Below are positions 1,157 to 11,077 of a DNA stretch of 52,984 bases, piece by piece. This DNA is from Candidatus Yonathbacteria bacterium (GTDB taxonomy: Bacteria; Patescibacteriota; Minisyncoccia; Phycocordibacterales; JACNGX01): NCBI GenBank assembly GCA_013334825.1, contig JAAXWR010000002.1, positions 100,025-153,008 of the forward strand, written 5' to 3'. Under the pieces are notes generated by a model. It searched no databases. It was not told the origin of the DNA and worked only from the letters and a program-made list of their open reading frames with translations. Every line of letters begins with the position of its first letter. The first letter of the stretch is position 1. The translations under genes and the position numbers were made by a program.

Positions 1157-1180
1157 ACGATAAAGATACAAAACGATATA

Positions 1181-1210
1181 CAGGCGCGGGGCATGCTTGC
1201 CCCGCGCCTG
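1181..1210 (+). terminator. GC-rich hairpin after pyrG
   Basis: caggcgcgggg / ccccgcgcctg stem around a short loop, 25 nt after the pyrG stop. Confidence 0.6.
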
Positions 1211-1283
1211 TACTGCTTGTGGTATATCTCCGTCCGTGGTATACCTAAGCAAGTCTTTTTCTTTTTAAATAAAAATCACCCTT

Positions 1284-1961
1284 ATGTTAAAGAAAAAAGA
1301 ACAAGTGCTGTACATTGCACATTCCGCGACAGATTGGCGTAGCCGAATGTTGAGTAATGACGTAGGTGCTTTTGTCATGATTGACGGAGAAGAAAGACGC
1401 CTGTTCCCCAGTGTGACGCAGTTTATTGAGATGATAAAATATCCTGAACATTCAGGATGGAGTCATCTTGATGAGTCACGTCTTTCCTTTGATGCAGAAA
1501 AAGAAACGGTTACCCTTGGAGAGTCAGACGTTTCCGATTCTGTCGGATATATGTGTGGTCGCCCGTATAATCCTGTGGTCTTTCATGCAAATAAGGGACT
1601 TGACTATCGGGAAATACTGAAACAATGTAGCCCCGATATAGCAAGGAAAATTGGATCGAAACTTCGTCCAGGGAGAGTCGTCGTGTATCTGTTTGGTAAG
1701 ACTTATCGGTACGGTTCCGCAGAACATGTTGCGCTTATTGAACAGGCGATTCGGGCAAAGTTTGCGCAAAACGAAACGGCTTTCAAGGCACTTCTTGCCA
1801 CGGAAGGATTGGAGCTTCGCTACGTCCCTCGTCGGGGCAAAGATTCAACACTTTTTTCTGCCGAAATGTTTTGCAAACTTCTCACAGAGATACGTGAAGC
1901 ATGTCTTGCGAAAAGAGATGCATATCGGCAGACATGTACAAACGGATGTGCACAGGTATAA
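1284..1961 (+). CDS. hypothetical protein, weak NADAR (DUF1768)-like
   Basis: 225-aa ORF. Segment AEHVALIEQAIRAKFAQNETAFKALLATEGLEL resembles the NADAR/YbiA helix pattern. The family call is tentative. Confidence 0.45.
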   Translation: MLKKKEQVLYIAHSATDWRSRMLSNDVGAFVMIDGEERRLFPSVTQFIEMIKYPEHSGWSHLDESRLSFDAEKETVTLGESDVSDSVGYMCGRPYNPVVFHANKGLDYREILKQCSPDIARKIGSKLRPGRVVVYLFGKTYRYGSAEHVALIEQAIRAKFAQNETAFKALLATEGLELRYVPRRGKDSTLFSAEMFCKLLTEIREACLAKRDAYRQTCTNGCAQV

Positions 1962-2043
1962 GGAAAACAAAAGCCACAGGGTCATACCTGTGGCGTTTTT
2001 TATATGTGTTATGAAGTGATAGGTGATGTTATACTATATGCAT

Positions 2044-2117
2044 TGCGGGGTCGTCTAACGTGGTAAGACACGGGCGCTTTGAACGCTTGTATCTGGGTTC
2101 GAGCCCTAGCCCCGCAT
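2044..2117 (+). tRNA. tRNA-Gln(UUG), copy 1
   Basis: Cloverleaf read by hand: acceptor TGCGGGG/CCCCGCA, D stem GTCT/AGAC, anticodon loop CTTTGAA (anticodon TTG), T arm CTGGG-TTCGAGC-CCTAG. No encoded CCA. TGTTATACT extended -10 lies upstream. Confidence 0.85.
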
Positions 2118-2387
2118 CAAAAAGCTCGCTTTTTGATGCGGGGAGCGGGGCGACTGCTCGTCCCGCGTCTAGGGTTCGAAAGCCACAGCGATGTCTGAGC
2201 GATTTATCGCGAAGACCGCGAGGAGAATTATTTACGATATGCCGGAATGATTTTAACAGTAATAAAGAAGAAGTATCTTAAATGTGTGCATTTGTCTCAT
2301 AGATTGAAGATATTACACAATACGTTTTTGTATGCAATATAACAAATCTGTTGCGTCTTTTTGGTGATACGGTATTATACTGTATAT

Positions 2388-3104
2388 ATGTCTTTATCTC
2401 ACGAGACGCTGACGGCTCCGGCCGAGGCAGGGTCAGTTGACTCATTAGAAAAACGTTTTAATGAACTAAAGGTCGAAAGAGAAAAAGTAGAACAAAGTAT
2501 TCGAGAGTCTTTCGATATTAAACGCTTGAAGGTGTATGTATCGATAGTTAATAGAGTGCATGCTCAGGAAGGGATAGATGATACCGAGAATATATTACGT
2601 AAGCGTCTTGAAGAGCTCGGAGAAGATTATGATGAATTAAAAAAAATGTATGAAGGATATCTGGCATATAAAGCGCAAAATCTTGATGTTATCGTTACAG
2701 AAATGCAACAAGTACAAGCATCAGCCATTAAAAAGTTTCAAGAAGACATAAAAAGAGACATTGCAGAAGCAGGACTTTTTGCGGAAGCGCTGAAGAGGGA
2801 AAAGGATGTATATCTATTTTCGCTCCTCACTGAGATTGTGCAATATGAAGAAGGTTTCATAGCTTCGGGGAAAAAAGAAGATTCTCTCGATTCAATTCTT
2901 GAGGATCAACCTGCAGATATACAAAAAAAATATTTTGGCTTGAAATGGGCATATAGTGAATTGGAAGCAATGGAGGGGCCCTTTATACAAGGGTCGTATG
3001 ACAGGGAAAGGTTTGTATATGAAATTCTTAAAGATTTGGGCATTACGATTGATACTGGACATTCGTTGATTTTTAATCGTAGAATGGAATCTCTAGAAAG
3101 ATAA
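2388..3104 (+). CDS. hypothetical protein (charged, coiled-coil-like)
   Basis: ATG at 2388 sits 6 nt after TATACT (2376-2381). No recognisable family. Lies between the two identical tRNA-Gln genes. Confidence 0.6.
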   Translation: MSLSHETLTAPAEAGSVDSLEKRFNELKVEREKVEQSIRESFDIKRLKVYVSIVNRVHAQEGIDDTENILRKRLEELGEDYDELKKMYEGYLAYKAQNLDVIVTEMQQVQASAIKKFQEDIKRDIAEAGLFAEALKREKDVYLFSLLTEIVQYEEGFIASGKKEDSLDSILEDQPADIQKKYFGLKWAYSELEAMEGPFIQGSYDRERFVYEILKDLGITIDTGHSLIFNRRMESLER

Positions 3105-3115
3105 TAAATATGACT

Positions 3116-3151
3116 AAACACACGGCGACCTATTTAGGCTGCCGTGTGTTT
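3116..3151 (+). terminator. hairpin after the 2388-3104 gene
   Basis: 11-bp stem aaacacacggc / gccgtgtgttt with a 14-nt loop. Confidence 0.5.
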
Positions 3152-3194
3152 AGTTGGAAACTATTCTAAAAGATATGTTATCATGCACCTATAT

Positions 3195-3268
3195 TGCGGG
3201 GTCGTCTAACGTGGTAAGACACGGGCGCTTTGAACGCTTGTATCTGGGTTCGAGCCCTAGCCCCGCAT
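3195..3268 (+). tRNA. tRNA-Gln(UUG), copy 2
   Basis: Positions 3193-3270 are identical to 2042-2119, giving the same cloverleaf. Confidence 0.85.
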
Positions 3269-3270
3269 CA

Positions 3271-3433
3271 GAGCGAAGCGATGATGTGGGGCTAGGGCTC
3301 GAACGCGGAGGGGGTCGGGGAACCTGTTGGTTCCTTGTGGAGGAAGTACATGGAACCGTGGGTTCCATGAGCGCAGCCCAGCCCTTTCCACCGAAAGGGC
3401 TGGGCGAGCAGTGAGTAGCCCTAGCCCCGCATC
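3271..3433 (+). ncRNA. GC-rich multi-hairpin module ending in a copy of the tRNA-Gln 3' end (function unknown)
   Basis: Perfect stems at 3319-3334, 3349-3369 and 3376-3405. 3288-3304 is the exact complement of tRNA positions 3248-3264. 3417-3433 repeats tRNA 3253-3269. Confidence 0.35.
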
Positions 3434-3469
3434 CTACAATATTTATTCTCATTTCTCATTATTACTACC

Positions 3470-4213
3470 ATGACAAACCTCACAGGAACCATTGCCCTTG
3501 TTACTGGAGCGTCAAAAGGTATCGGACGCGCGACGGCAATCGCCCTCGCGAAGGAAGGGTGTTCGGTCATTATCAATTATAAATCCGACGCCGAAGCAGC
3601 CGCCGATACTCTCAAAGAGTGCGATGCCTATTCACAAGGTAACATGACGATTGTGGCGGATGTTTCGCGCGAAGAGGATGTTGCTCGGATGTTCAACGAT
3701 ATCGAGAGCAGATACTCCCGCCTGGATGTTCTTGTTAACAATGCAGGGATATTTGACGAGCGTGACAGTCCGACAAATATTGAAACATTTGAGCATATAT
3801 ACAGAAATAATTTTCTCAGTGCTGTTATCGTTACCAAATATACACTGTCTCTTATGAAGGAAGGTAAGATTGTGAACGTGTCCTCCATCCATGGGAGACT
3901 TGGGTACGGTCGGCCCGGGGCGATTGCATACGCGGCATTCAAATCTGCACTTGAGAGCTATACGAAAAATCTTGCAAAGGAACTTGCCCCTCATATATGT
4001 GTGAATGCCATTGCCCCTGGGAGAACACTTACACCGATGTGGGGTACTTTGAGTGAGGATGAGCAAAAAGAATTGGGGAAGGGACAGCTCATCGGTCGTA
4101 TGATAGAACCGGAAGAAATTGCCGACGGTATTCTTTTTCTCATCAAAAATGATGCAATGTGTGGCGAAGTGATGACGATGGATGGCGGTATGGGAATCGC
4201 ATATCTCAAATAG
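3470..4213 (+). CDS. SDR-family oxidoreductase (FabG-like)
   Basis: TGASKGIGRA cofactor motif, NNAG, and catalytic YAAFK (YxxxK). Confidence 0.9.
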   Translation: MTNLTGTIALVTGASKGIGRATAIALAKEGCSVIINYKSDAEAAADTLKECDAYSQGNMTIVADVSREEDVARMFNDIESRYSRLDVLVNNAGIFDERDSPTNIETFEHIYRNNFLSAVIVTKYTLSLMKEGKIVNVSSIHGRLGYGRPGAIAYAAFKSALESYTKNLAKELAPHICVNAIAPGRTLTPMWGTLSEDEQKELGKGQLIGRMIEPEEIADGILFLIKNDAMCGEVMTMDGGMGIAYLK

Positions 4214-4217
4214 CGGT

Positions 4218-4679
4218 ATGAAATGGCAACACCCACCGATTATCAAAATATACGAAGCGCTTGGTGCCGTTGCTGACGGACGTATTGATGTATTAGAGAA
4301 TACGGCAAAAGTGTATTCATCCAGCCGGAACAAATGGTATGACGTTGTGTATGATGAGACGACGGGTGCCATTATGACGAACGATAACGGATCGTATTGG
4401 AAAGAGTATCTTGGGTATCCGTCTATCGCATTTTTCTTTGTGAAAGGAATACTTCCATATGATGCGCGCATGGGTGAATTGCTCAAAGGTATTAAGTGGA
4501 AAGATATCAATCAAGAATTCAAGAACGATTTTGACAAGACCCTCGCACATATCGAATCATCGCTCTCGTCGCCTGAGAGTGAAGCACTTGCTATATATGT
4601 TCGTGATATTGATACCCGCATTGCGACCCTCGCTCCGGACATGTTCGGTAAGAAAATACTGCCACCCGAGGGGTACTGA
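4218..4679 (+). CDS. hypothetical protein
   Basis: ATG 4 nt after the SDR stop. 153 aa, no recognised family. Confidence 0.55.
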   Translation: MKWQHPPIIKIYEALGAVADGRIDVLENTAKVYSSSRNKWYDVVYDETTGAIMTNDNGSYWKEYLGYPSIAFFFVKGILPYDARMGELLKGIKWKDINQEFKNDFDKTLAHIESSLSSPESEALAIYVRDIDTRIATLAPDMFGKKILPPEGY

Positions 4680-4703
4680 GTTGCTGGAATCTTCCAAAGA
4701 GCG

Positions 4704-4712
4704 TGCTATAAT
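4704..4712 (+). promoter_or_regulatory. extended -10 (TGCTATAAT) upstream of tRNA-Gln(CUG)
   Basis: Exact TGnTATAAT match 29 nt before the tRNA 5' end. Confidence 0.55.
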
Positions 4713-4741
4713 GCCCTCATATATTGAATATTGCGGGATCG

Positions 4742-4815
4742 TCTAATGGTAGGACATCGCCCTCTGGAGGCGAGTATCTAGGTTCGAGTCCTAGTCCCGC
4801 AGCCAGTCTGGACAC
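4742..4815 (+). tRNA. tRNA-Gln(CUG)
   Basis: Acceptor TGCGGGA/TCCCGCA, anticodon stem TCGCC/GGCGA, loop CTCTGGA (anticodon CTG), T arm CTAGG-TTCGAGT-CCTAG, discriminator G and encoded CCA. Confidence 0.9.
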
Positions 4816-4853
4816 TGTTCCTGAGACCAGGACGGGTCATATAAAATTAACCT

Positions 4854-5498
4854 ATGGCAGAAAAAGATATGACAGACAAGATTCAGTCTTGTTTAAATCA
4901 GGGTGAATCTATAACAGAGGATCAAGTCAGGTCCTTAATGATTTTGGTGCGTAAGCATCTTGAGCTCATGTCTGATACAGACATGCTGCAATTTTTAACA
5001 CTCAACCTATTTTGTAATTGGTGCGCTCATATAGAAATTACACAATCAAATACAGGCCTGCGAACTCTCGCAAAGATTAATGATGTTTTGGTGCGCGTAA
5101 AAAATTCAACAAACACTGATCACATGCTCGCGGAAATATCGGGTGCAATTGGTCTCGATGTGCTTCGTGCAGAGCTAATTACTTTCTTATCTCGAATTGG
5201 AGTTACACATCGTTTGGATCAGAGAGCAGAGTGGGCGGCTTTTCTAAAGTGCTTACTTGAAGTTGTTCGTGATGTGCCACTAGCATTTCCTCCGATTGCT
5301 AAACTCAACAAGGGAGCTCAAAAAATCTACGATCAGATTGCTCAAAATCCGATTAAGCCCGGGGCAGGGGTAATTCGCGCTACTATTTCAAAGGTAGATT
5401 ACGGCACTCTTGGAGCAGGAGAAGGAGAATTATGGTGTCTCCTAATACGGACTGAAGATACTACTACTCTCATTGCTCCTCTCCGTATCCTCGTCTAG
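4854..5498 (+). CDS. hypothetical protein
   Basis: 214-aa ORF. ATG 6 nt after TAAAAT (4842-4847). No recognised family. Confidence 0.6.
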   Translation: MAEKDMTDKIQSCLNQGESITEDQVRSLMILVRKHLELMSDTDMLQFLTLNLFCNWCAHIEITQSNTGLRTLAKINDVLVRVKNSTNTDHMLAEISGAIGLDVLRAELITFLSRIGVTHRLDQRAEWAAFLKCLLEVVRDVPLAFPPIAKLNKGAQKIYDQIAQNPIKPGAGVIRATISKVDYGTLGAGEGELWCLLIRTEDTTTLIAPLRILV

Positions 5499-5503
5499 TG
5501 GAT

Positions 5504-6841
5504 TCATGAAGGGTTTTCGAGCAATACTTTTTTGTTTATCAGAGTAAGCTTACTTTTAAACGACTGCATCAGCTCGCGCTTCTCCGCGACGGTTCCTTTT
5601 TTGAGAATATATTTTGCATAGGATCGTAGGTCTAAGCCGCTCTGGTCGGTTATCTGGTCTTCGGTTAAGCCAAGTACATTATTACGGAAATTACTGAAGC
5701 GCCCCATCTCTTTTTCGAGTTTTTCTTTAATTCCAATCTTATCTATTTGGATCTTGTCTAAGATCGCTAAAAGTTGTTCGACAAGACTGTCCTCACGCAA
5801 ATAGGTGTTTTTACACGACTTGTCATAAAATCGGGTACAGCCATAGTAGATGTAGCTGTTCGTAGATCCGTCTTTTAGATTTTTAAACTTCTCCTGTGCG
5901 GTTATACCAGAATTACATATTCCGCATTTCATCAGGCGAGTAAATGCAAATTCTTTCACCGCTGGCCCATGCGGTTTATGCGAATCAAGTTTTTCCTGGA
6001 CCTTCTTGAATAACTCCTGACTGATGATTGATTCGTGTCGGCCGATATTCCACCTACCACTCTTCCGTGGGTACTCGAGCAGTCCACAGTAAAAAGGATT
6101 TCGGAGAACGGTGTGCACGTTGCTAAGAGTGAAGGGCTTACCACTTTTGGTTCTAAATTTTAGGTCATCCTTCAACCATCTGTATAACGCTCTTCCACTC
6201 CACTTTTCGTACGCCACTTTTTCAAACATGATTTTGATGACGTGAGAGCGTTGAGGATCGAGAATGACGTGGCATTTCTTGGTGCGATCCGGGTGGTTGA
6301 GGTATCCGGTTGGTGCAACACTCGGCCACAGTCCCATTTCAATCCTGGTGCGAAGTCCGCGCTTCACGTTGACACTCTTATTATCGTTATCAAGCTTCGC
6401 CTGACTACAAAGAATCATCAAGAGGAACTTTTCGCTTGGAGAGTTGGTGAAGCGTTGCCCGTACGTTTTTACTTCTATCAGTTTGTGCTGATCCATCAGG
6501 TCAACAATTGAGCCGAGGTCGCCGGCATTTCTTGAGAGGCGATCGGGATGCCAAGCAAGAATACCGCCAAATCGACCCTCTTTAATTTGCCGGATCATCT
6601 CATTGAAGACCGGTCTCTGAGCAGTCTCTTTTGCCGAGTGCGACTCGCGTTTAATCTCTGTCACCTCGATTCCGTCTCGCTGGGCTAACTGCAACATCTC
6701 CTTGATCTGGGAATCGATGGACAGAGCCTGCTTTTCATCCGATTCGCTCGATTTACGGGCGTATAGGCAGTATTTGGGCGCTTCTATAGGAGGCGCCGGG
6801 TCAGAATTCAACTCTAGCGGGTTGCTGATGTGCATACACAC
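5504..6841 (-). CDS. large serine recombinase (resolvase domain + recombinase domain + zinc ribbon)
   Basis: N-terminal YARKSSESDEKQALSIDSQ resolvase-type catalytic Ser region. Later CGICNSG ... YYGC zinc-ribbon-like cysteines. Confidence 0.85.
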   Translation of the reverse strand: MCMHISNPLELNSDPAPPIEAPKYCLYARKSSESDEKQALSIDSQIKEMLQLAQRDGIEVTEIKRESHSAKETAQRPVFNEMIRQIKEGRFGGILAWHPDRLSRNAGDLGSIVDLMDQHKLIEVKTYGQRFTNSPSEKFLLMILCSQAKLDNDNKSVNVKRGLRTRIEMGLWPSVAPTGYLNHPDRTKKCHVILDPQRSHVIKIMFEKVAYEKWSGRALYRWLKDDLKFRTKSGKPFTLSNVHTVLRNPFYCGLLEYPRKSGRWNIGRHESIISQELFKKVQEKLDSHKPHGPAVKEFAFTRLMKCGICNSGITAQEKFKNLKDGSTNSYIYYGCTRFYDKSCKNTYLREDSLVEQLLAILDKIQIDKIGIKEKLEKEMGRFSNFRNNVLGLTEDQITDQSGLDLRSYAKYILKKGTVAEKRELMQSFKSKLTLINKKVLLENPS

Positions 6842-7024
6842 AACACATGCCGGACCTGGGGGAAGAAGTCTAGCCGCCCATTAGTGGATAACCAAGCAGA
6901 AAGTTAGAATTGCGGGAAGTTCTTATTAAAGTCACCTTCTAACCCACCGTCCCTTTTCGGGGGAGCAGGTTATTCTCTTATTTTAGGCCATTATATGGTA
7001 TGGCGAGGATGTAATAAGAACAAC

Positions 7025-7053
7025 TTGACAAGGCCTGGTACTTTGTATACACT
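7025..7053 (+). promoter_or_regulatory. sigma70-type promoter TTGACA-17-TACACT for the 7087 operon
   Basis: TTGACA at 7025-7030, a 17-nt spacer, then TACACT at 7048-7053. Confidence 0.55.
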
Positions 7054-7086
7054 TGTACTAAGCTTATTATTAATTCTGAAAACATC

Positions 7087-7890
7087 ATGGCTGAGGAAAA
7101 CAAAGGAGAATCTGGGGCTGGCAAGGTTAAGAAGGAGCGCAGTACCGCATATCCGGGTATTGCCGTACAAGACGCAATTGGATTCAGTAAGATTCTCGTC
7201 GATTCTTATGGAAAGTCTCCATTTAACAGAGACGCTGCGCTGCAGGCACTTAAGCTAAAACCCGGCGGTTCTTCGTTCACGAAGGTGGCGGCGCTGGTGC
7301 ATTACGGTCTACTTACAAGACAAGGTAACGCATACGGTATTTCGGAGCTTGCTGAGCGAATCATTTACTTCACTTCGGAGGAAGCGCAAAAGGCAGCAAT
7401 TGTCGAAGCTGTGTTAAAGCCGAAGCTGTTCAATTCACTCGTAACGGAATACACAGGCCGAGCGGTCCCAAATCTTCTGCGGAACATTTTGATCCAACAG
7501 CATAAGATAAACCGGAATGTTGCCGATAATGTCGCGGACATCTTCAAGTCCTCCATAGAGCATGCAGGCTTGTATATGAATGAAATCATAACCGCGGTAC
7601 CGGTTACGACTTCCGAAGTGTCTGATACGGGAGAAGAATTAGATGTACAGGATCTTGCCCAACCTCCTCGCGCTACAGGGAAGATGCCGGTTGCTCCACA
7701 GTTAAAAGTCCCCGCTGGGATGCAAAGTGTCTCTCTTCCAAGTGGAATTATTATCAGCTACCCCTCTGAAGTGGCATATCTGTTTGCGCTCGGTAAGTTT
7801 GGAGCCCAAGTAGCTGCTCTTGAGGAAGCTGTCGGTAAGGAGTTGAAAAAAGATAACAATGACCCAGAGCCTATTACTGCCACAGAATAA
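7087..7890 (+). CDS. hypothetical protein (possible winged-helix repeats)
   Basis: 267-aa ORF. The next gene overlaps it by 32 nt. No family recognised. Confidence 0.6.
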   Translation: MAEENKGESGAGKVKKERSTAYPGIAVQDAIGFSKILVDSYGKSPFNRDAALQALKLKPGGSSFTKVAALVHYGLLTRQGNAYGISELAERIIYFTSEEAQKAAIVEAVLKPKLFNSLVTEYTGRAVPNLLRNILIQQHKINRNVADNVADIFKSSIEHAGLYMNEIITAVPVTTSEVSDTGEELDVQDLAQPPRATGKMPVAPQLKVPAGMQSVSLPSGIIISYPSEVAYLFALGKFGAQVAALEEAVGKELKKDNNDPEPITATE

Positions 7891-8800
7891 CTGGAAGAAA
7901 GTACTTCCTCACATCCAAGCGGCTGGCGAACGTCAGTCGGTAAGTAAGGCTACGATTGGTGACGATTTTCAGTTTCTCCAAGACATCGGTGTCTTTCAAG
8001 AAGGCGCAGATGATGTTCTCACAGAAGCTGGGCGAGCTATCTTCGAGTCCATATTCATTCGGCGTGATGGGAAAGATGTAGAGATCCTTCAGCAACTATT
8101 GTTACAGTACCCAATCACTATCGCAATTCAGCAGTATCTTTGGGGGGTGAAAGATGCCAAGATCGATCAGGCGCTTACAGTCCTTAAAGCGACAGGTTTC
8201 TGGTTCTATTCCTCCGCAGAGCCAATGACACACTTTCTCGACCTACTAAATCAGGTTGGGATAATTAGCTATAGCAAAAAGTTGCGACAAGTTAAGGTTC
8301 TGGTTTCTCCTGACGTACCGTATGTTCCAAAAAATGTTTTTATTGACCCTAATCGACCGTTCTCAAACATTCTGTGGATAAAGAGGATCCTTGCGGAATG
8401 TAAGGGTTCAATATTGTGGTTTGATAAGCACTTCCAAAAAGAAGCCCTGGAATGGCTGTGGGCAGTAGCGGACGCAAACAAGATTACAGAGATCAAATTA
8501 CTCTCGCTTGATTTGGGGGAAGCAAATCTTAGCTCAGAAGCAAGGAAATCTTATAAACGATTTAAGCAAGAGATGCTTGCTAAAGGAATCAATGCCACTT
8601 GGTCAGTTATTGATAGTAAGCTAGTAAGAGATAGCCACGATAGGTGGATACTCGATGGGAGTGGTTACATGAGAAATGTTCCCAATGTAAATGCCATATC
8701 CTCAGGACAGCGATCCGAGATGTCTGTATCTGAGAATTATGATCAAATGCTTCCGGTGTTTGAAGAGTATTGGGAAAAGTCAAAAGAAATTACGAGTTAA
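7859..8800 (+). CDS. hypothetical protein, C-terminal PLD-fold / MIT_C-like module (tentative)
   Basis: 313 aa. The C-terminal pattern ILWFDKHF ... KLLSLD ... SHDRWILDGSGYMRNVPNV resembles the MITD1 C-terminal PLD-like domain (HDR-I ... G). Confidence 0.5.
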   Translation: MTQSLLLPQNNWKKVLPHIQAAGERQSVSKATIGDDFQFLQDIGVFQEGADDVLTEAGRAIFESIFIRRDGKDVEILQQLLLQYPITIAIQQYLWGVKDAKIDQALTVLKATGFWFYSSAEPMTHFLDLLNQVGIISYSKKLRQVKVLVSPDVPYVPKNVFIDPNRPFSNILWIKRILAECKGSILWFDKHFQKEALEWLWAVADANKITEIKLLSLDLGEANLSSEARKSYKRFKQEMLAKGINATWSVIDSKLVRDSHDRWILDGSGYMRNVPNVNAISSGQRSEMSVSENYDQMLPVFEEYWEKSKEITS

Positions 8801-8811
8801 TATTAAACATT

Positions 8812-9057
8812 ATGGCAAAACTGAATAAGTTCACACTGGAGTATAACGAGAAGAAGGATCGTTGGGATCTACGAAATGACAAGACGGATAAACTAATTGA
8901 ATCGTTCGACACTAAGACAGAGGCCACGGCCGGAGGTGTTCTACGGGAAGCGGTTGGTGATAGTGGCGGATCGGTCAAAATCCAAAAAGAGAATGGTCGC
9001 ATTCAGGAGGAGCGTACGTATCCAAAGAGCGCAGACCCTAGAGAATCAAAGGGATAG
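8812..9057 (+). CDS. DUF2188 family protein
   Basis: WDLRNDK ... FDTKTEATAGG ... SVKIQKENGRIQEERTYPKSADP matches the DUF2188 layout. Confidence 0.7.
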   Translation: MAKLNKFTLEYNEKKDRWDLRNDKTDKLIESFDTKTEATAGGVLREAVGDSGGSVKIQKENGRIQEERTYPKSADPRESKG

Positions 9058-9334
9058 TCTTGAGCCTTGTTGTATATAAATTAACCTAAGCTAAGCTAGA
9101 AATAGGTAGCAAATTTTGCTACAATTATTTAACAGTTCGGCCTAAACTTGTCGGTTAACTCCGGCAAGCATGGCAATAAATACCCGCTAGAGATCAAAGG
9201 ACTCCTGGTCAGAGTCACTCTAGCGGGTCATATCTGGAAACAGGTATGGGTTCGGCCGAAAGGTTGGATCGCGATGGTCAGGAGCCTTTTGATTATCTGG
9301 TTCACTCCGTCGATTAAAAACCCGCTAGAAAATT

Positions 9335-9559
9335 ATGAAAACAATACGAATCGTTCTTGGTTTGCTTTTCTGTCTTACTATTTATTTTCTTCCCACAGGA
9401 ATTGCAATTATTAGAAGCCGATCGAATACAGTAGCAATCCTTGTACTTGATCTATTCCTGGGTTGGACAGGAATTGGTTGGGTGGTCGCCTTAATTTGGG
9501 CAGTTGCCACAGATACGCCAAAGTCAGTAGTTCAGCAAACTCCTCAGCAAAAGATTTAA
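9335..9559 (+). CDS. superinfection immunity (Imm_superinfect) family membrane protein
   Basis: YFLPTGIAIIRSRSNTVAILVLDLFLGWTGIGWVVALIWAV matches the T4 Imm-like family signature (GWT-iGW--AliWA). Confidence 0.8.
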   Translation: MKTIRIVLGLLFCLTIYFLPTGIAIIRSRSNTVAILVLDLFLGWTGIGWVVALIWAVATDTPKSVVQQTPQQKI

Positions 9560-9790
9560 AGTGTGAATGAATATGTGGAGAAAGGGGTGGATATCTCGCC
9601 TTAGACTTCCGTGGGAGTTTTACCCTTTTTCATTTTTTAAGTATCTATAAAATAGCTTTGTTTTTAGCCAAAGTTGTGTAATCTCTTACCCCAAAATACC
9701 TGTTTTTATGGTGTAAAAGTCGGTATGTATTGGTCATAAAATTCCCCAGTTTTTGTGGAAGATCTGGCGGATAAGATTTTATCGAATTCT

Positions 9791-9902
9791 GGATGTGTAC
9801 ACCATAAGTATTTTTGATGTTTTCCTATTTTGTCTTTATTTTAAAGCCTTTAATCTTAAAAATAGGGGGGTCAAAAAAGCCCATCTTATGGTGTACACAT
9901 CC
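9791..9902. repeat. 18-bp perfect inverted repeat
   Basis: ggatgtgtacaccataag (9791-9808) and its exact reverse complement cttatggtgtacacatcc (9885-9902). Confidence 0.9.
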
Positions 9903-10178
9903 AATTTGATTAATAGGACTAATAACCCGTCTTAATGCTGTAAAAGTCTTTGGGCTATTTTGTTTTATCCTTATTTAAGGCTGTATTCTGGATGGTCTAA
10001 CTCGGACTTTTACAGGATCCTGGTTCTGGCGAATAGCGACCAAGACGGGTCACTGTCTGAGACTCGAACCGAGTATAATAAGGCTCAACAGTGGGGCATC
10101 AAACACACCCAACCAGACCTGTCAGCAATGAAGCGCAACGAAATGGTGCGGGACTCGAACGCGACAGAAACAAAATAC

Positions 10179-10217
10179 TAAAAACAAAAAACCCACTTCA
10201 TGGTATGGTAGTGGGTT
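10179..10217 (-). terminator. rho-independent terminator of the 10244-11077 gene
   Basis: Stem aacccact/agtgggtt followed by a T-run on the minus strand. Confidence 0.7.
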
Positions 10218-10243
10218 GTTTCACATGATGTGAAGTGATTATA

Positions 10244-11077
10244 TTACAGTGCCGTTGCAAACATGACAGGACAATCATAGCCATGTTTTGCATCGTAGCG
10301 GATTTTCGGAATGTTTTCACCACTCCAATGTTGCATGTTCACGTGAGAGATACGAGACGTGTTGAAGACGACATGATGGTGTTGTATGATGCGGGTCTCC
10401 TGTGAGAACTTCCAGAACAGATATCCGAGAGCAAATGGCGTTTGTTGCATATCCGCGACACGACTGTTGGCAAAGTCATTGTTGGCGCCTCTTCCTGAGC
10501 AATCAAACTTTGACTCCAGGAGTACTACACAGCGATGATTGAGAGAGTTGAACACTTCAAGTCCTCCAAACTCCTGCCAGATACACATTGCCAGAGATTC
10601 CGCGCAATCTTCATACTCTCGCATTGTTTTGGGAGCGATTTCATCGAGCGATTGGCCAGCAATAAACAGGTTAAGATGTTCCGCTCTCAGGTCATCGATG
10701 TTTTTCGGTGCTACCGTTGCAAAGACCGTAAGGGGATAGACCCGACAGATTTCGAATCCTCCACCATAGCGGTTGCAGACCACCATCTGCCGATTGTTTT
10801 CGAGGTTGGGCGGTGTGATGCCAAGATTTTTTTCACCGGACACAATGTTTGCAATCGCCTCATTTCGGGCATTGGTGTAAAGCTCGCGAAGGTGACCATC
10901 AAGGTCTATCGCTTCACGAAACACATCAGGGTGCAAACCGTAGTCCAGATTGTAGAAACTTTTTGCATTCGGATTGTGGAGAAAAAAACGACGAGTTTTA
11001 ATCAAATCAAGCACGACACGATTGGCGTGCTCTGCCTGCTCGGGGGTGTAGGCGTGATTGTCATAATAGTGTGTCAT
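10244..11077 (-). CDS. hypothetical protein
   Basis: 277-aa ORF with its own terminator. No family recognised. Confidence 0.6.
   Translation of the reverse strand: MTHYYDNHAYTPEQAEHANRVVLDLIKTRRFFLHNPNAKSFYNLDYGLHPDVFREAIDLDGHLRELYTNARNEAIANIVSGEKNLGITPPNLENNRQMVVCNRYGGGFEICRVYPLTVFATVAPKNIDDLRAEHLNLFIAGQSLDEIAPKTMREYEDCAESLAMCIWQEFGGLEVFNSLNHRCVVLLESKFDCSGRGANNDFANSRVADMQQTPFALGYLFWKFSQETRIIQHHHVVFNTSRISHVNMQHWSGENIPKIRYDAKHGYDCPVMFATAL

Follow-up and report, generated by a model that had tools for sequence, protein, structure and literature searches.

A small integrative island at a tRNA-Gln(CTG) gene of Candidatus Yonathbacteria, with a large serine recombinase and a putative LOOT RNA leader

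Introduction

The phage attachment sites (attP) of large serine recombinases (LSRs) are usually roughly 50 bp long, and they are compact in the model enzymes. In this study, we analysed a 52,984-nt stretch of DNA (hereafter the window) from a Candidatus Yonathbacteria bacterium (assembly GCA_013334825.1, contig JAAXWR010000002.1, positions 100,025 to 153,008; genome of 0.84 Mb, 97% complete), in which an LSR gene, a small set of cargo genes and a LOOT RNA lie beside a tRNA-Gln(CTG) gene. We are confident that window positions ~4804-10126 are a ~5.3-kb integrative island inserted by the LSR at the 3' terminus of this tRNA gene; LOOT is probably a cis-acting leader, and the cargo is likely to be defensive.

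Members of the Patescibacteria, or candidate phyla radiation (CPR), are host-dependent bacteria with very small genomes, and descriptions of their mobile elements are few. Our literature searches returned no paper on LSR islands or on LOOT function in Patescibacteria. Among tycheposon-like elements, those of Prochlorococcus being the described case, 910 of 937 use tyrosine recombinases and the rest LSRs, and some tycheposons resemble phage-inducible chromosomal islands (PICIs) and carry terS, according to the available part of the preprint (Hackl et al., bioRxiv 10.1101/2020.12.28.424599). The LOOT RNA motif (RF03000) was described by Weinberg et al. in 2017 (PMC5737381), and PMC7657543 says of it that it has many cross-covariations and nothing more. 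No function is stated for LOOT in the main text of PMC5737381, whose supplements may say more, or in PMC7657543 and PMC11701678.

Integration site and boundaries of the island

The features that define the site are as follows:
4732-4805, + strand: tRNA-Gln(CTG), the integration target (ARAGORN; Rfam tRNA, 61.3 bits)
4800-4803: putative left junction (attL) core CAGC, followed by CA, the last tRNA bases (placed from the empty site and siblings)
4806-4850, no strand: left arm (P' arm), from the alignment with the G024 sibling and the sibling left-arm alignment
5504-6841, - strand: large serine recombinase (integrase), convergent with the tRNA (Pfam, PHROGs)
10036-10122, no strand: right arm (P arm), from the G024 alignment and a four-sibling alignment
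10123-10126, no strand: putative right junction (attR) core CAGC, with host DNA after it (empty-site and sibling alignments)

We compared the window with a genome from another family of the order (G024) and found a sibling element at the same tRNA-Gln(CTG). The LSRs of the two were 96% identical in protein and 87% in DNA; DNA identity was 85% in the tRNA region, 76% over ~9087-9438, 91% over 10037-10115 and 65% in pyrG, and nothing else matched. The proteins of pyrG, which stands beside tRNA-Gln, were 60-66% identical between the two genomes. At the two ends of the element, the alignments showed a conserved block at 4806-4850, where the left arms agreed at 42 of 45 nt, and another beginning at 10036, with unrelated DNA inside and outside these blocks. 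The two elements (5.3 kb in the window, ~9.5 kb in G024) share arms, LSR and the LOOT-Imm unit, and differ in cargo. A search of 301 genomes of the order for the right arm gave matches in three: the window genome (G000), G024 and, weakly, G102, which holds a third sibling at tRNA-Gln(CTG) with an LSR 57% identical and a contig that ends near the right junction; the block is thus not syntenic and fixed across relatives. These results indicate that the island has moved between bacterial families.

A search among relatives for an empty site, which the initial annotation had proposed, was successful in one genome, G007. It has no LSR match, and its tRNA-Gln(CTG) leads, from nucleotide 1 onwards, into the sequence found after the right arm of G024; this was the best match in the contig (73 nt at 78% identity, E 1.5e-11). 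The genes upstream of the tRNA are syntenic between G007 and the occupied site. The same comparison with G002, which belongs to the same genus as the window genome, showed the SDR gene alone to be shared locally.

We then examined the junctions. The right arms of the window, G024, L035 and L036 carry a palindrome, a TA(T/G)AATA box, AACCA and CAGC in equal spacing, and they diverge right after CAGC. In the window, the right arm comprises the palindrome at 10038-10051, a 17-mer (10074-10090) that is conserved and includes a TATAAT box, and then AACCA-N7 up to the junction, and a palindrome scan located GACC-N6-GGTC in the left arm at 4825-4838. In L036, a right arm joins left-arm sequence at CAGC, forming an attP-like junction, and in L037 a duplicated left arm begins at CAGC. 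Moreover, CCAGAC (10110-10115) and GTCTGG (4806-4811) form a perfect inverted repeat whose halves are equally distant from the CA of CAGC. Based on the G007 site, the four right arms, the L036 and L037 junctions and this inverted repeat, we placed attL at 4800-4803 and attR at 10123-10126, and CAGC is the sole sequence common to both putative junctions. The same evidence led us to drop our first idea for the crossover, a 15-nt direct repeat (4825-4839 / 10038-10052), and it does not agree with the initial proposal of imperfect inverted repeats within 4816-4853 and 9560-10240. BLAST of the window arms against 103 fetched loci returned the G024 copy (L033) alone, plus a 17-nt word in L035. A metagenome scan with a 29-nt word from the right arm matched two contigs, both of the G024 type, and revealed neither a circle nor a new context. 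The attP-like junction of L036 (5700-5860) sits inside the chromosome, which suggests tandem elements or dimer integration.

The CCA of tRNA-Gln(CTG) is encoded at 4803-4805, and the element supplies the last tRNA bases, so that the tRNA stays whole. The block does adjoin the CCA end, as first annotated, and it starts at 4806 and not at 4816, since ARAGORN ends the tRNA at 4805. Repeats of the tRNA 3' end of at least 12 nt were found in 5 of 52 loci, compared with 0 of 52 for a 5'-end control, and this rarity is expected for serine integrases. The early description of the block as a small integrated element is borne out by the cross-family sibling at the same tRNA, the empty site in G007 and the junctions kept in four siblings.

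The recombinase and its family

The protein encoded at 5504-6841 matched PF00239 Resolvase (71.5 bits), PF07508 Recombinase (62.4) and PF13408 Zn_ribbon_recom (30.3), all above their cut-offs, in agreement with the annotation of a convergent 445-aa LSR. It also matched the PHROG integrase family phrog_95 (E 7e-67) and, more weakly, the 'DNA invertase' phrog_125. The motifs YARKSS near residue 30 and DRLSR near residue 100, which we take to be the catalytic serine and arginine motifs of LSRs, are intact in the translation, and the nearest solved structure is SPbeta SprA/YokA (E 1e-11). Small resolvases and invertases have about 180-200 aa, with a catalytic domain and a C-terminal helix-turn-helix; the window enzyme, with its 445 aa and its additional Recombinase and zinc-ribbon domains, falls outside that class and is an LSR of three domains.

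Matches to this LSR were present in 25 of 41 related genomes, G000 included. For a family sample, 412 relatives were found among 599 candidate stretches, from Candidatus Yonathbacteria, Kaiserbacteria, Paceibacterota and the Patescibacteria group, and 80 loci were kept. The tRNA genes at these 80 loci lay almost always on the 3' side of the LSR gene (97 of 98). A 3' tRNA gene was present at 58 of the loci, and the nearest one was convergent with the LSR in all 58; the types were Gln (22), Ser (20), Arg (9), Lys (3), Trp (2), Ile (1) and one odd call. In a sample of the phylum, 80 of 151 genomes had an LSR match (E<=1e-20). The island therefore belongs to a large clade of Patescibacteria LSRs that sit convergent with tRNA genes.

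Thirteen LSR relatives were found on IMG/VR contigs, and several of these (relatives 43-59% identical) follow ParB-methylase, TerS and TerL genes, indicating that part of the clade is phage-linked. In L127, L131 and L135 (IMG/VR), the relatives, 43-56% identical, lie immediately 3' of genes for a ParB-methyltransferase and the small and large terminases. Within 4854-9559 of the window, the PHROG matches were integrase, a DUF2188-like family and superinfection immunity, and no capsid, tail, terminase or lysis gene was detected; the lack of structural phage genes noted at first reading thus held for the whole element by Pfam and PHROGs. Searches with Pfam, PHROGs and NCBIfam revealed no primase or rep, terS or capsid-size gene of a phage satellite, with three proteins unassigned that may hide such functions, and no relaxase or type IV secretion family of an integrative and conjugative or mobilizable element.

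The LOOT RNA and the Imm_superinfect gene

Upstream of the Imm-type gene we detected an RNA that is absent from the feature list of the initial annotation. The features concerned are:
9097-9125, + strand: TAGAAA-17-TACAAT, preceded by a TG, a promoter-like site whose end is 14 nt from the start of LOOT (9/12 consensus match only)
9139-9270, + strand: LOOT RNA (RF03000), read as the 5' leader of the Imm gene (cmscan)
9320-9329, + strand: copy of the 5' strand of the LOOT helix, probable sequestering partner of 9219-9228 (direct repeat; family-wide test)
9335-9559, + strand: Imm_superinfect small membrane protein, led by LOOT (PF14373, E 1.1e-17; phrog_1039)

The LOOT match scored 79.1 bits against a gathering score of 46.4 (E 5.7e-14) and covered the whole model (positions 1-121). 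The Imm_superinfect match was likewise clear (64.0 bits against a gathering threshold of 27.9), and this gene follows LOOT in G024/L033 as well. LOOT is present in the siblings G024, G028 and G020. Among the 41 relatives there were 14 hits in 12 genomes, 11 of them within ~10 kb on a contig with an LSR homologue. A LOOT model built from these 14 hits was used to scan the 80 LSR loci and gave 37 matches in 36 loci, of which 31 were divergent upstream of the LSR (108-9652 nt), five within 92 nt of its 3' end and one elsewhere. In the phylum sample, LOOT occurred in 30 of 151 genomes and in none of 14 control genomes; a hand comparison placed 20 of the 41 hits at most 10 kb from an LSR match, 15 of them divergent. 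Some of the LSRs near these hits were just 27-39% identical to the query. LOOT also occurs with no recombinase; in G029, for example, it precedes a FemAB gene, and in G019 it is part of an islet with a zeta toxin.

We next looked at what follows LOOT. An ORF on the same strand starts 36-87 nt after it in 46 of 47 instances. In the window LOOT, the 5' and 3' strands of the long helix are 9182-9191 and 9219-9228, respectively, and the copy of the 5' strand at 9320-9329 ends 5 nt before the Imm start codon (9335). Across the family, an exact copy of at least 9 nt of LOOT positions 30-52, the 5' strand of the long helix, precedes the start codon in 27 of 47 instances and ends -3 to +6 nt from it in 26 of these 27. 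In a control for position, copies were found in the upstream flank in 3 of 47 and downstream in 28 of 47; when LOOTs were paired with the pre-start regions of other instances, 59 of 2162 pairs (2.7%) had a copy, compared with 27 of 47 own pairs. The repeated words vary from element to element (25 distinct words), and all 27 instances also have the complementary 3' strand. The counts overstate independence, since the instances are related, and the real support lies in the variety of words. When 9132-9345 is folded at minimum energy (z -5.6), the LOOT helices form and the copy stays unpaired. Between LOOT and the Imm gene no terminator-like site was found, and no obvious Shine-Dalgarno sequence precedes the Imm start codon.

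The genes led by LOOT encode Imm_superinfect (4), SNase (2), zinc-ribbon membrane proteins (at least 3), DUF4352 (2), DUF5655 (2), an Ltp lipoprotein (1), an Eco57I-type enzyme (1) and others, and 25 of the 47 have no Pfam match. With an ORF downstream and a covarying alternative pairing over the initiation region, LOOT has the features of a cis-regulatory leader and, judged from its sequence, looks like a riboswitch-like translational switch for the next gene.

Cargo genes and non-coding DNA

The remaining features within and beside the element are:
4854-5498, + strand: 214-aa protein of a conserved unnamed family (ORF; AF2 pLDDT 96, pTM 0.90)
7025-7053, + strand: promoter-like site TTGACA-17-TACACT for the cargo pair (10/12 consensus match only)
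7087-7890, + strand: 267-aa protein, function unassigned, partner of the next gene (ORF)
7859-8800, + strand: 313-aa protein with a predicted N-terminal winged helix and C-terminal phospholipase D (PLD)-fold domain (AF2 pLDDT 90; Foldseek)
8770-9057, + strand: DUF2188 protein (PF09954, E 3.5e-9; phrog_3220; PADLOC candidate PDC-S16, E 8e-9)
9706-9895, no strand: three TTATGGTGTA iterons in + - + order (9706, 9798, 9886), in AT-rich non-coding DNA (exact-copy scan)
10141-10165, no strand: host flank, inverted partial copy of the tRNA-Gln 3' end (inverted repeat; relatives without the element)

The island is laid out as left arm, variable gene, LSR, divergent cargo slot, LOOT leading an envelope/exclusion gene, iterons and right arm. 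The gene between tRNA and LSR varies among siblings and encodes an M23 peptidase in G024. In the window, it is the ORF at 4854-5498, which was indeed found as annotated; its orphan status did not hold, as 392 cluster representatives matched it (E<=1e-3). The 214-aa protein had no Pfam, PHROG or NCBIfam match, and neither Foldseek (best E 0.097) nor a wider structure comparison (best Z 5.1) gave a convincing PDB match for its fold.

The promoter annotated upstream of the overlapping pair at 7087-8800 was located, as a consensus match, and the two ORFs overlap by 32 nt. The 267-aa protein has no Pfam, PHROG or NCBIfam match; it has 19 homologues, at least 8 of them apparently on the same contigs as homologues of the 313-aa protein. 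The latter has no Pfam family and 92 homologues, mostly from Patescibacteria by their source names. Foldseek matched its model to TrmBL2 (5bpd, a winged helix-turn-helix with a PLD-like domain, E 1e-5) and to Zucchini, NucT and R.NgoAVII, and its C-terminal half aligned with Nuc (1byr) at modest scores (TMt 0.66, rmsd 3.5 over 150 columns). The invariant residues of the family are H260-D261-R262-W263 and N273. Based on the predicted structure, the protein may be considered a candidate DNA-binding nuclease or defence gene. Atlas look-ups for the cargo gave unnamed clusters and PLD leads only. Pfam also found the DUF2188 and Imm-type superinfection-immunity genes that had been named at first. 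In G024, the slot is occupied by genes for a methylase (N6_N4), an endonuclease (MvaI/BcnI) and a KAP NTPase; with a restriction-modification system and a KAP NTPase there, a defence role is our best guess for the slot, and by analogy it likely carries anti-phage defence genes.

The ~680 bp of repeat-rich non-coding DNA in the initial annotation corresponds to 9560-10243, which contains repeats and no Pfam-matching ORF. It includes a perfect 19-nt inverted repeat (9790-9808/9885-9903). The three iterons are the only exact TTATGGTGTA copies in the window, and they keep their + - + order and spacing (~90-100 nt) in the G024 sibling (L023, 15938-16146), where the surrounding DNA has diverged; no Rep-like gene is present. 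Both T-arm-like fragments noted earlier exist. The one at ~10060 (10058-10070) belongs to the conserved right arm, and a decayed minus-strand tRNA there was not supported by ARAGORN or Rfam; the one at ~10150 is host DNA, a repeat of the tRNA 3' end in inverted orientation, which the empty site of a relative has as well. In G024, the corresponding inverted-copy sequence after the tRNA belongs to a dispersed multi-copy repeat. The native sequence after tRNA-Gln in L017, L019 and L022 likewise repeats part of the tRNA 3' end in inverted orientation, and a hairpin often interrupts this copy.

Some neighbouring DNA was also informative. In G024, pyrG is directly followed by tRNA-Gln(CTG), and window 1157-4731 accordingly looks like more accreted island DNA. 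A tRNA-Gln(TTG) gene occurs there in two 100% identical 78-nt copies (2042-2119 and 3193-3270, 1151 nt apart), and an ORF between them (2361-3104) gave a weak PADLOC LmuA/DUF4297 match. On the right flank, the gene at 10244-11077 (- strand) has a terminator-like hairpin and T-run at ~10189-10216 and may be older island DNA; with this query, no homologue was found in G001, G002, G007 or G024. A group I intron match lies near tRNA genes in G024 (L023, 115-338; 50.8 bits against a gathering score of 50).

Discussion

The locus is a serine-integrase island of a widespread CPR family, real, precisely bounded and ordinary in kind; what is new about it is the probable LOOT leader switch and the extended arms. 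In the mechanism that we propose, the LSR would recombine attP, the right arm joined to the left arm, with the 3' terminus of tRNA-Gln(CTG). The two arm palindromes would lie 110 bp apart in this attP, and such an extended site with iterons nearby would imply accessory factors that control direction. The long helix of LOOT would compete with pairing of its 3' strand to the pre-start copy of the 5' strand, such that the initiation region would be accessible when LOOT is folded and blocked when it is unfolded. LOOT may be a sensor, either a riboswitch or a protein- or RNA-responsive element, in which the long helix and the covarying decoy copy at the start codon would constitute the switch. More broadly, LOOT could be a sensor-type leader that gates the first exclusion or defence gene of Patescibacteria islands, and the LSR clade could have an unusually extended attP; we put this forward tentatively, as a possibility that falls somewhat short of an expectation.

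Several observations weigh against our interpretation. From about nt 17, the empty-site match overlaps a dispersed repeat, of which the G024 contig has three other copies, and orthology of the empty site therefore rests on the first ~16 nt, the best score and the synteny of the left flank; on the right, the proteins encoded in G000, G024 and G007 show no synteny. The assembled contigs of two public runs contained no excised circle or empty site, which neither shows nor excludes excision. No candidate recombination directionality factor (RDF) is conserved between the two closest siblings (window and G024), and Pfam and PHROGs identified no replication, packaging or transfer gene in the element. 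At 45 and ~90 nt, with a palindrome inside each, the conserved arms exceed the usual attP length of LSRs, which the recombination-site model explains only in part, and with long tRNA-end direct repeats being rare, the junction was mapped in few siblings only. LOOT lies away from any LSR in 3 of the relatives' 14 hits and 21 of the 41 phylum-sample hits, 20 of the 47 instances have no exact copy of at least 9 nt, and the genes that follow are functionally diverse, unlike those of a metabolite riboswitch. Finally, the PLD-fold protein carries H-D-R and not the canonical PLD-nuclease motif H-x-K-x4-D.

We considered whether the element had instead landed in a pre-existing site, with the crossover at the centre of the GACC-N6-GGTC palindromes and ~110 nt (4806-4831 plus 10046-10126) belonging to the host or to an older element. 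The palindromes are a 14/15 direct repeat that brackets everything else, homology with G024 begins 2 nt before the right one, a palindrome around a central spacer is similar to the core site of a recombinase, and related elements retain a palindrome near the tRNA. However, this would leave the P half-site left of 10038 unconserved between LSRs that are 96% identical, and it would need the 110 nt at ~90% in hosts of two families, when they are absent from G007 and occur in 3 of 301 genomes. The four right arms, equally spaced up to CAGC and divergent only after it, and the joint of right and left arm at CAGC in L036 also argue against it, and we regard it as quite improbable. A recombinase that acts as a local invertase or resolvase, on the DNA from the tRNA 3' end to the inverted partial copy at 10141-10165, is more improbable by far. 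The 18-nt, 83% complementary inverted repeat (4784-4801 / 10147-10164) and the 'DNA invertase' match would fit such an activity, but the Recombinase and zinc-ribbon domains of the protein are those of integrases, the host has the inverted copy natively, as shown by the empty site and by genomes without the LSR clade, and all occupied sites have one orientation (58/58 convergent).

The other two alternatives accept the boundaries given above. An immobile remnant of a larger prophage or satellite, whose LSR and arms survive with no excision or spread of its own, would account for an element lacking structural, packaging, replication and RDF genes, for IMG/VR relatives placed right after phage packaging genes, for the accreted look of the neighbouring DNA, and for the read depth, which equals that of the flanks (175 vs 167 and 309 vs 304 in the two runs) with no joints in the contigs. 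We nevertheless think it rather unlikely: arms, junction core and catalytic motifs are all intact, many family members are compact units with LOOT 108-219 nt from the LSR start, and siblings of 5.3 and ~9.5 kb in different families share their ends and not their cargo, which argues for recent movement of small modular elements and not for parallel decay of prophages. As for LOOT, it might be a free-standing trans-acting small RNA (sRNA) or a DNA-level site, the pre-start copy being no regulatory partner. Rfam types the family as an sRNA ('Gene; sRNA'), and the diversity of downstream genes, the instances without a copy and the unpaired state of the copy in the minimum-energy fold all suit it. 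On the other hand, the ORF at 36-87 nt is nearly constant and on the same strand, no terminator-like site separates LOOT from the Imm gene, the copy keeps its place at the start codon, and 5' strand, 3' strand and copy covary three ways over 25 words, with only 2.7% among mismatched pairs. An sRNA is thus unlikely, and the cis-acting leader explains these features better.

For an LSR clade found in more than half of the phylum sample, the locus defines boundaries to the base, together with an empty site and a sibling from another family; this clade appears to shuttle defence and superinfection-exclusion genes to tRNA genes. It turns LOOT, an orphan Rfam motif, into a testable regulatory hypothesis with named pairing partners. 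A compact serine integrase with defined att sequences is also the kind of enzyme that is used as a genome-engineering tool, and an extended attP with accessory control of direction would, if true, be new for serine integrases.

Compared with the large serine integrases SPbeta SprA/YokA, A118, TP901-1 and Bxb1 and with Ccr of the staphylococcal cassette chromosome (SCC), the window LSR has the same domain architecture and catalytic motifs, and its putative junctions likewise share few bases with no long target duplication. The NCBIfam CcrB-like match (135 bits against a cut-off of 900) makes Ccr a distant relative at most. The island differs from the model integrases in targeting a tRNA 3' terminus and in its arms of 45 and ~90 nt, each with a palindrome, with iterons adjoining. 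Rfam describes LOOT as an sRNA, whereas our comparisons associate it with mobile islands, in which it has the behaviour of a 5' leader. It shares with translational riboswitches and leader switches a structured domain, an ORF at a fixed short distance and two exclusive covarying pairings, one of which would cover ~10 nt before the start codon as in sequestering switches; unlike them, it would control diverse mobile-element genes with no obvious Shine-Dalgarno sequence.

Tycheposons, as far as the available part of the preprint describes them, differ in belonging to another phylum, in that many have replication genes, none of which was found in the island, and in that no LOOT-type leader is described for them. 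Both are small cargo elements with a site-specific integrase in tRNA-gene islands of a streamlined genome without classical transfer systems; some tycheposons carry terS, and some of the island's LSR relatives adjoin TerS and TerL. The island resembles a tycheposon-like tRNA island in being an integrase element beside a full tRNA, with cargo modules, a patchy distribution and independent integrations. On this account, the tycheposon would be the closest functional analogue in print, the likeness being one of function.

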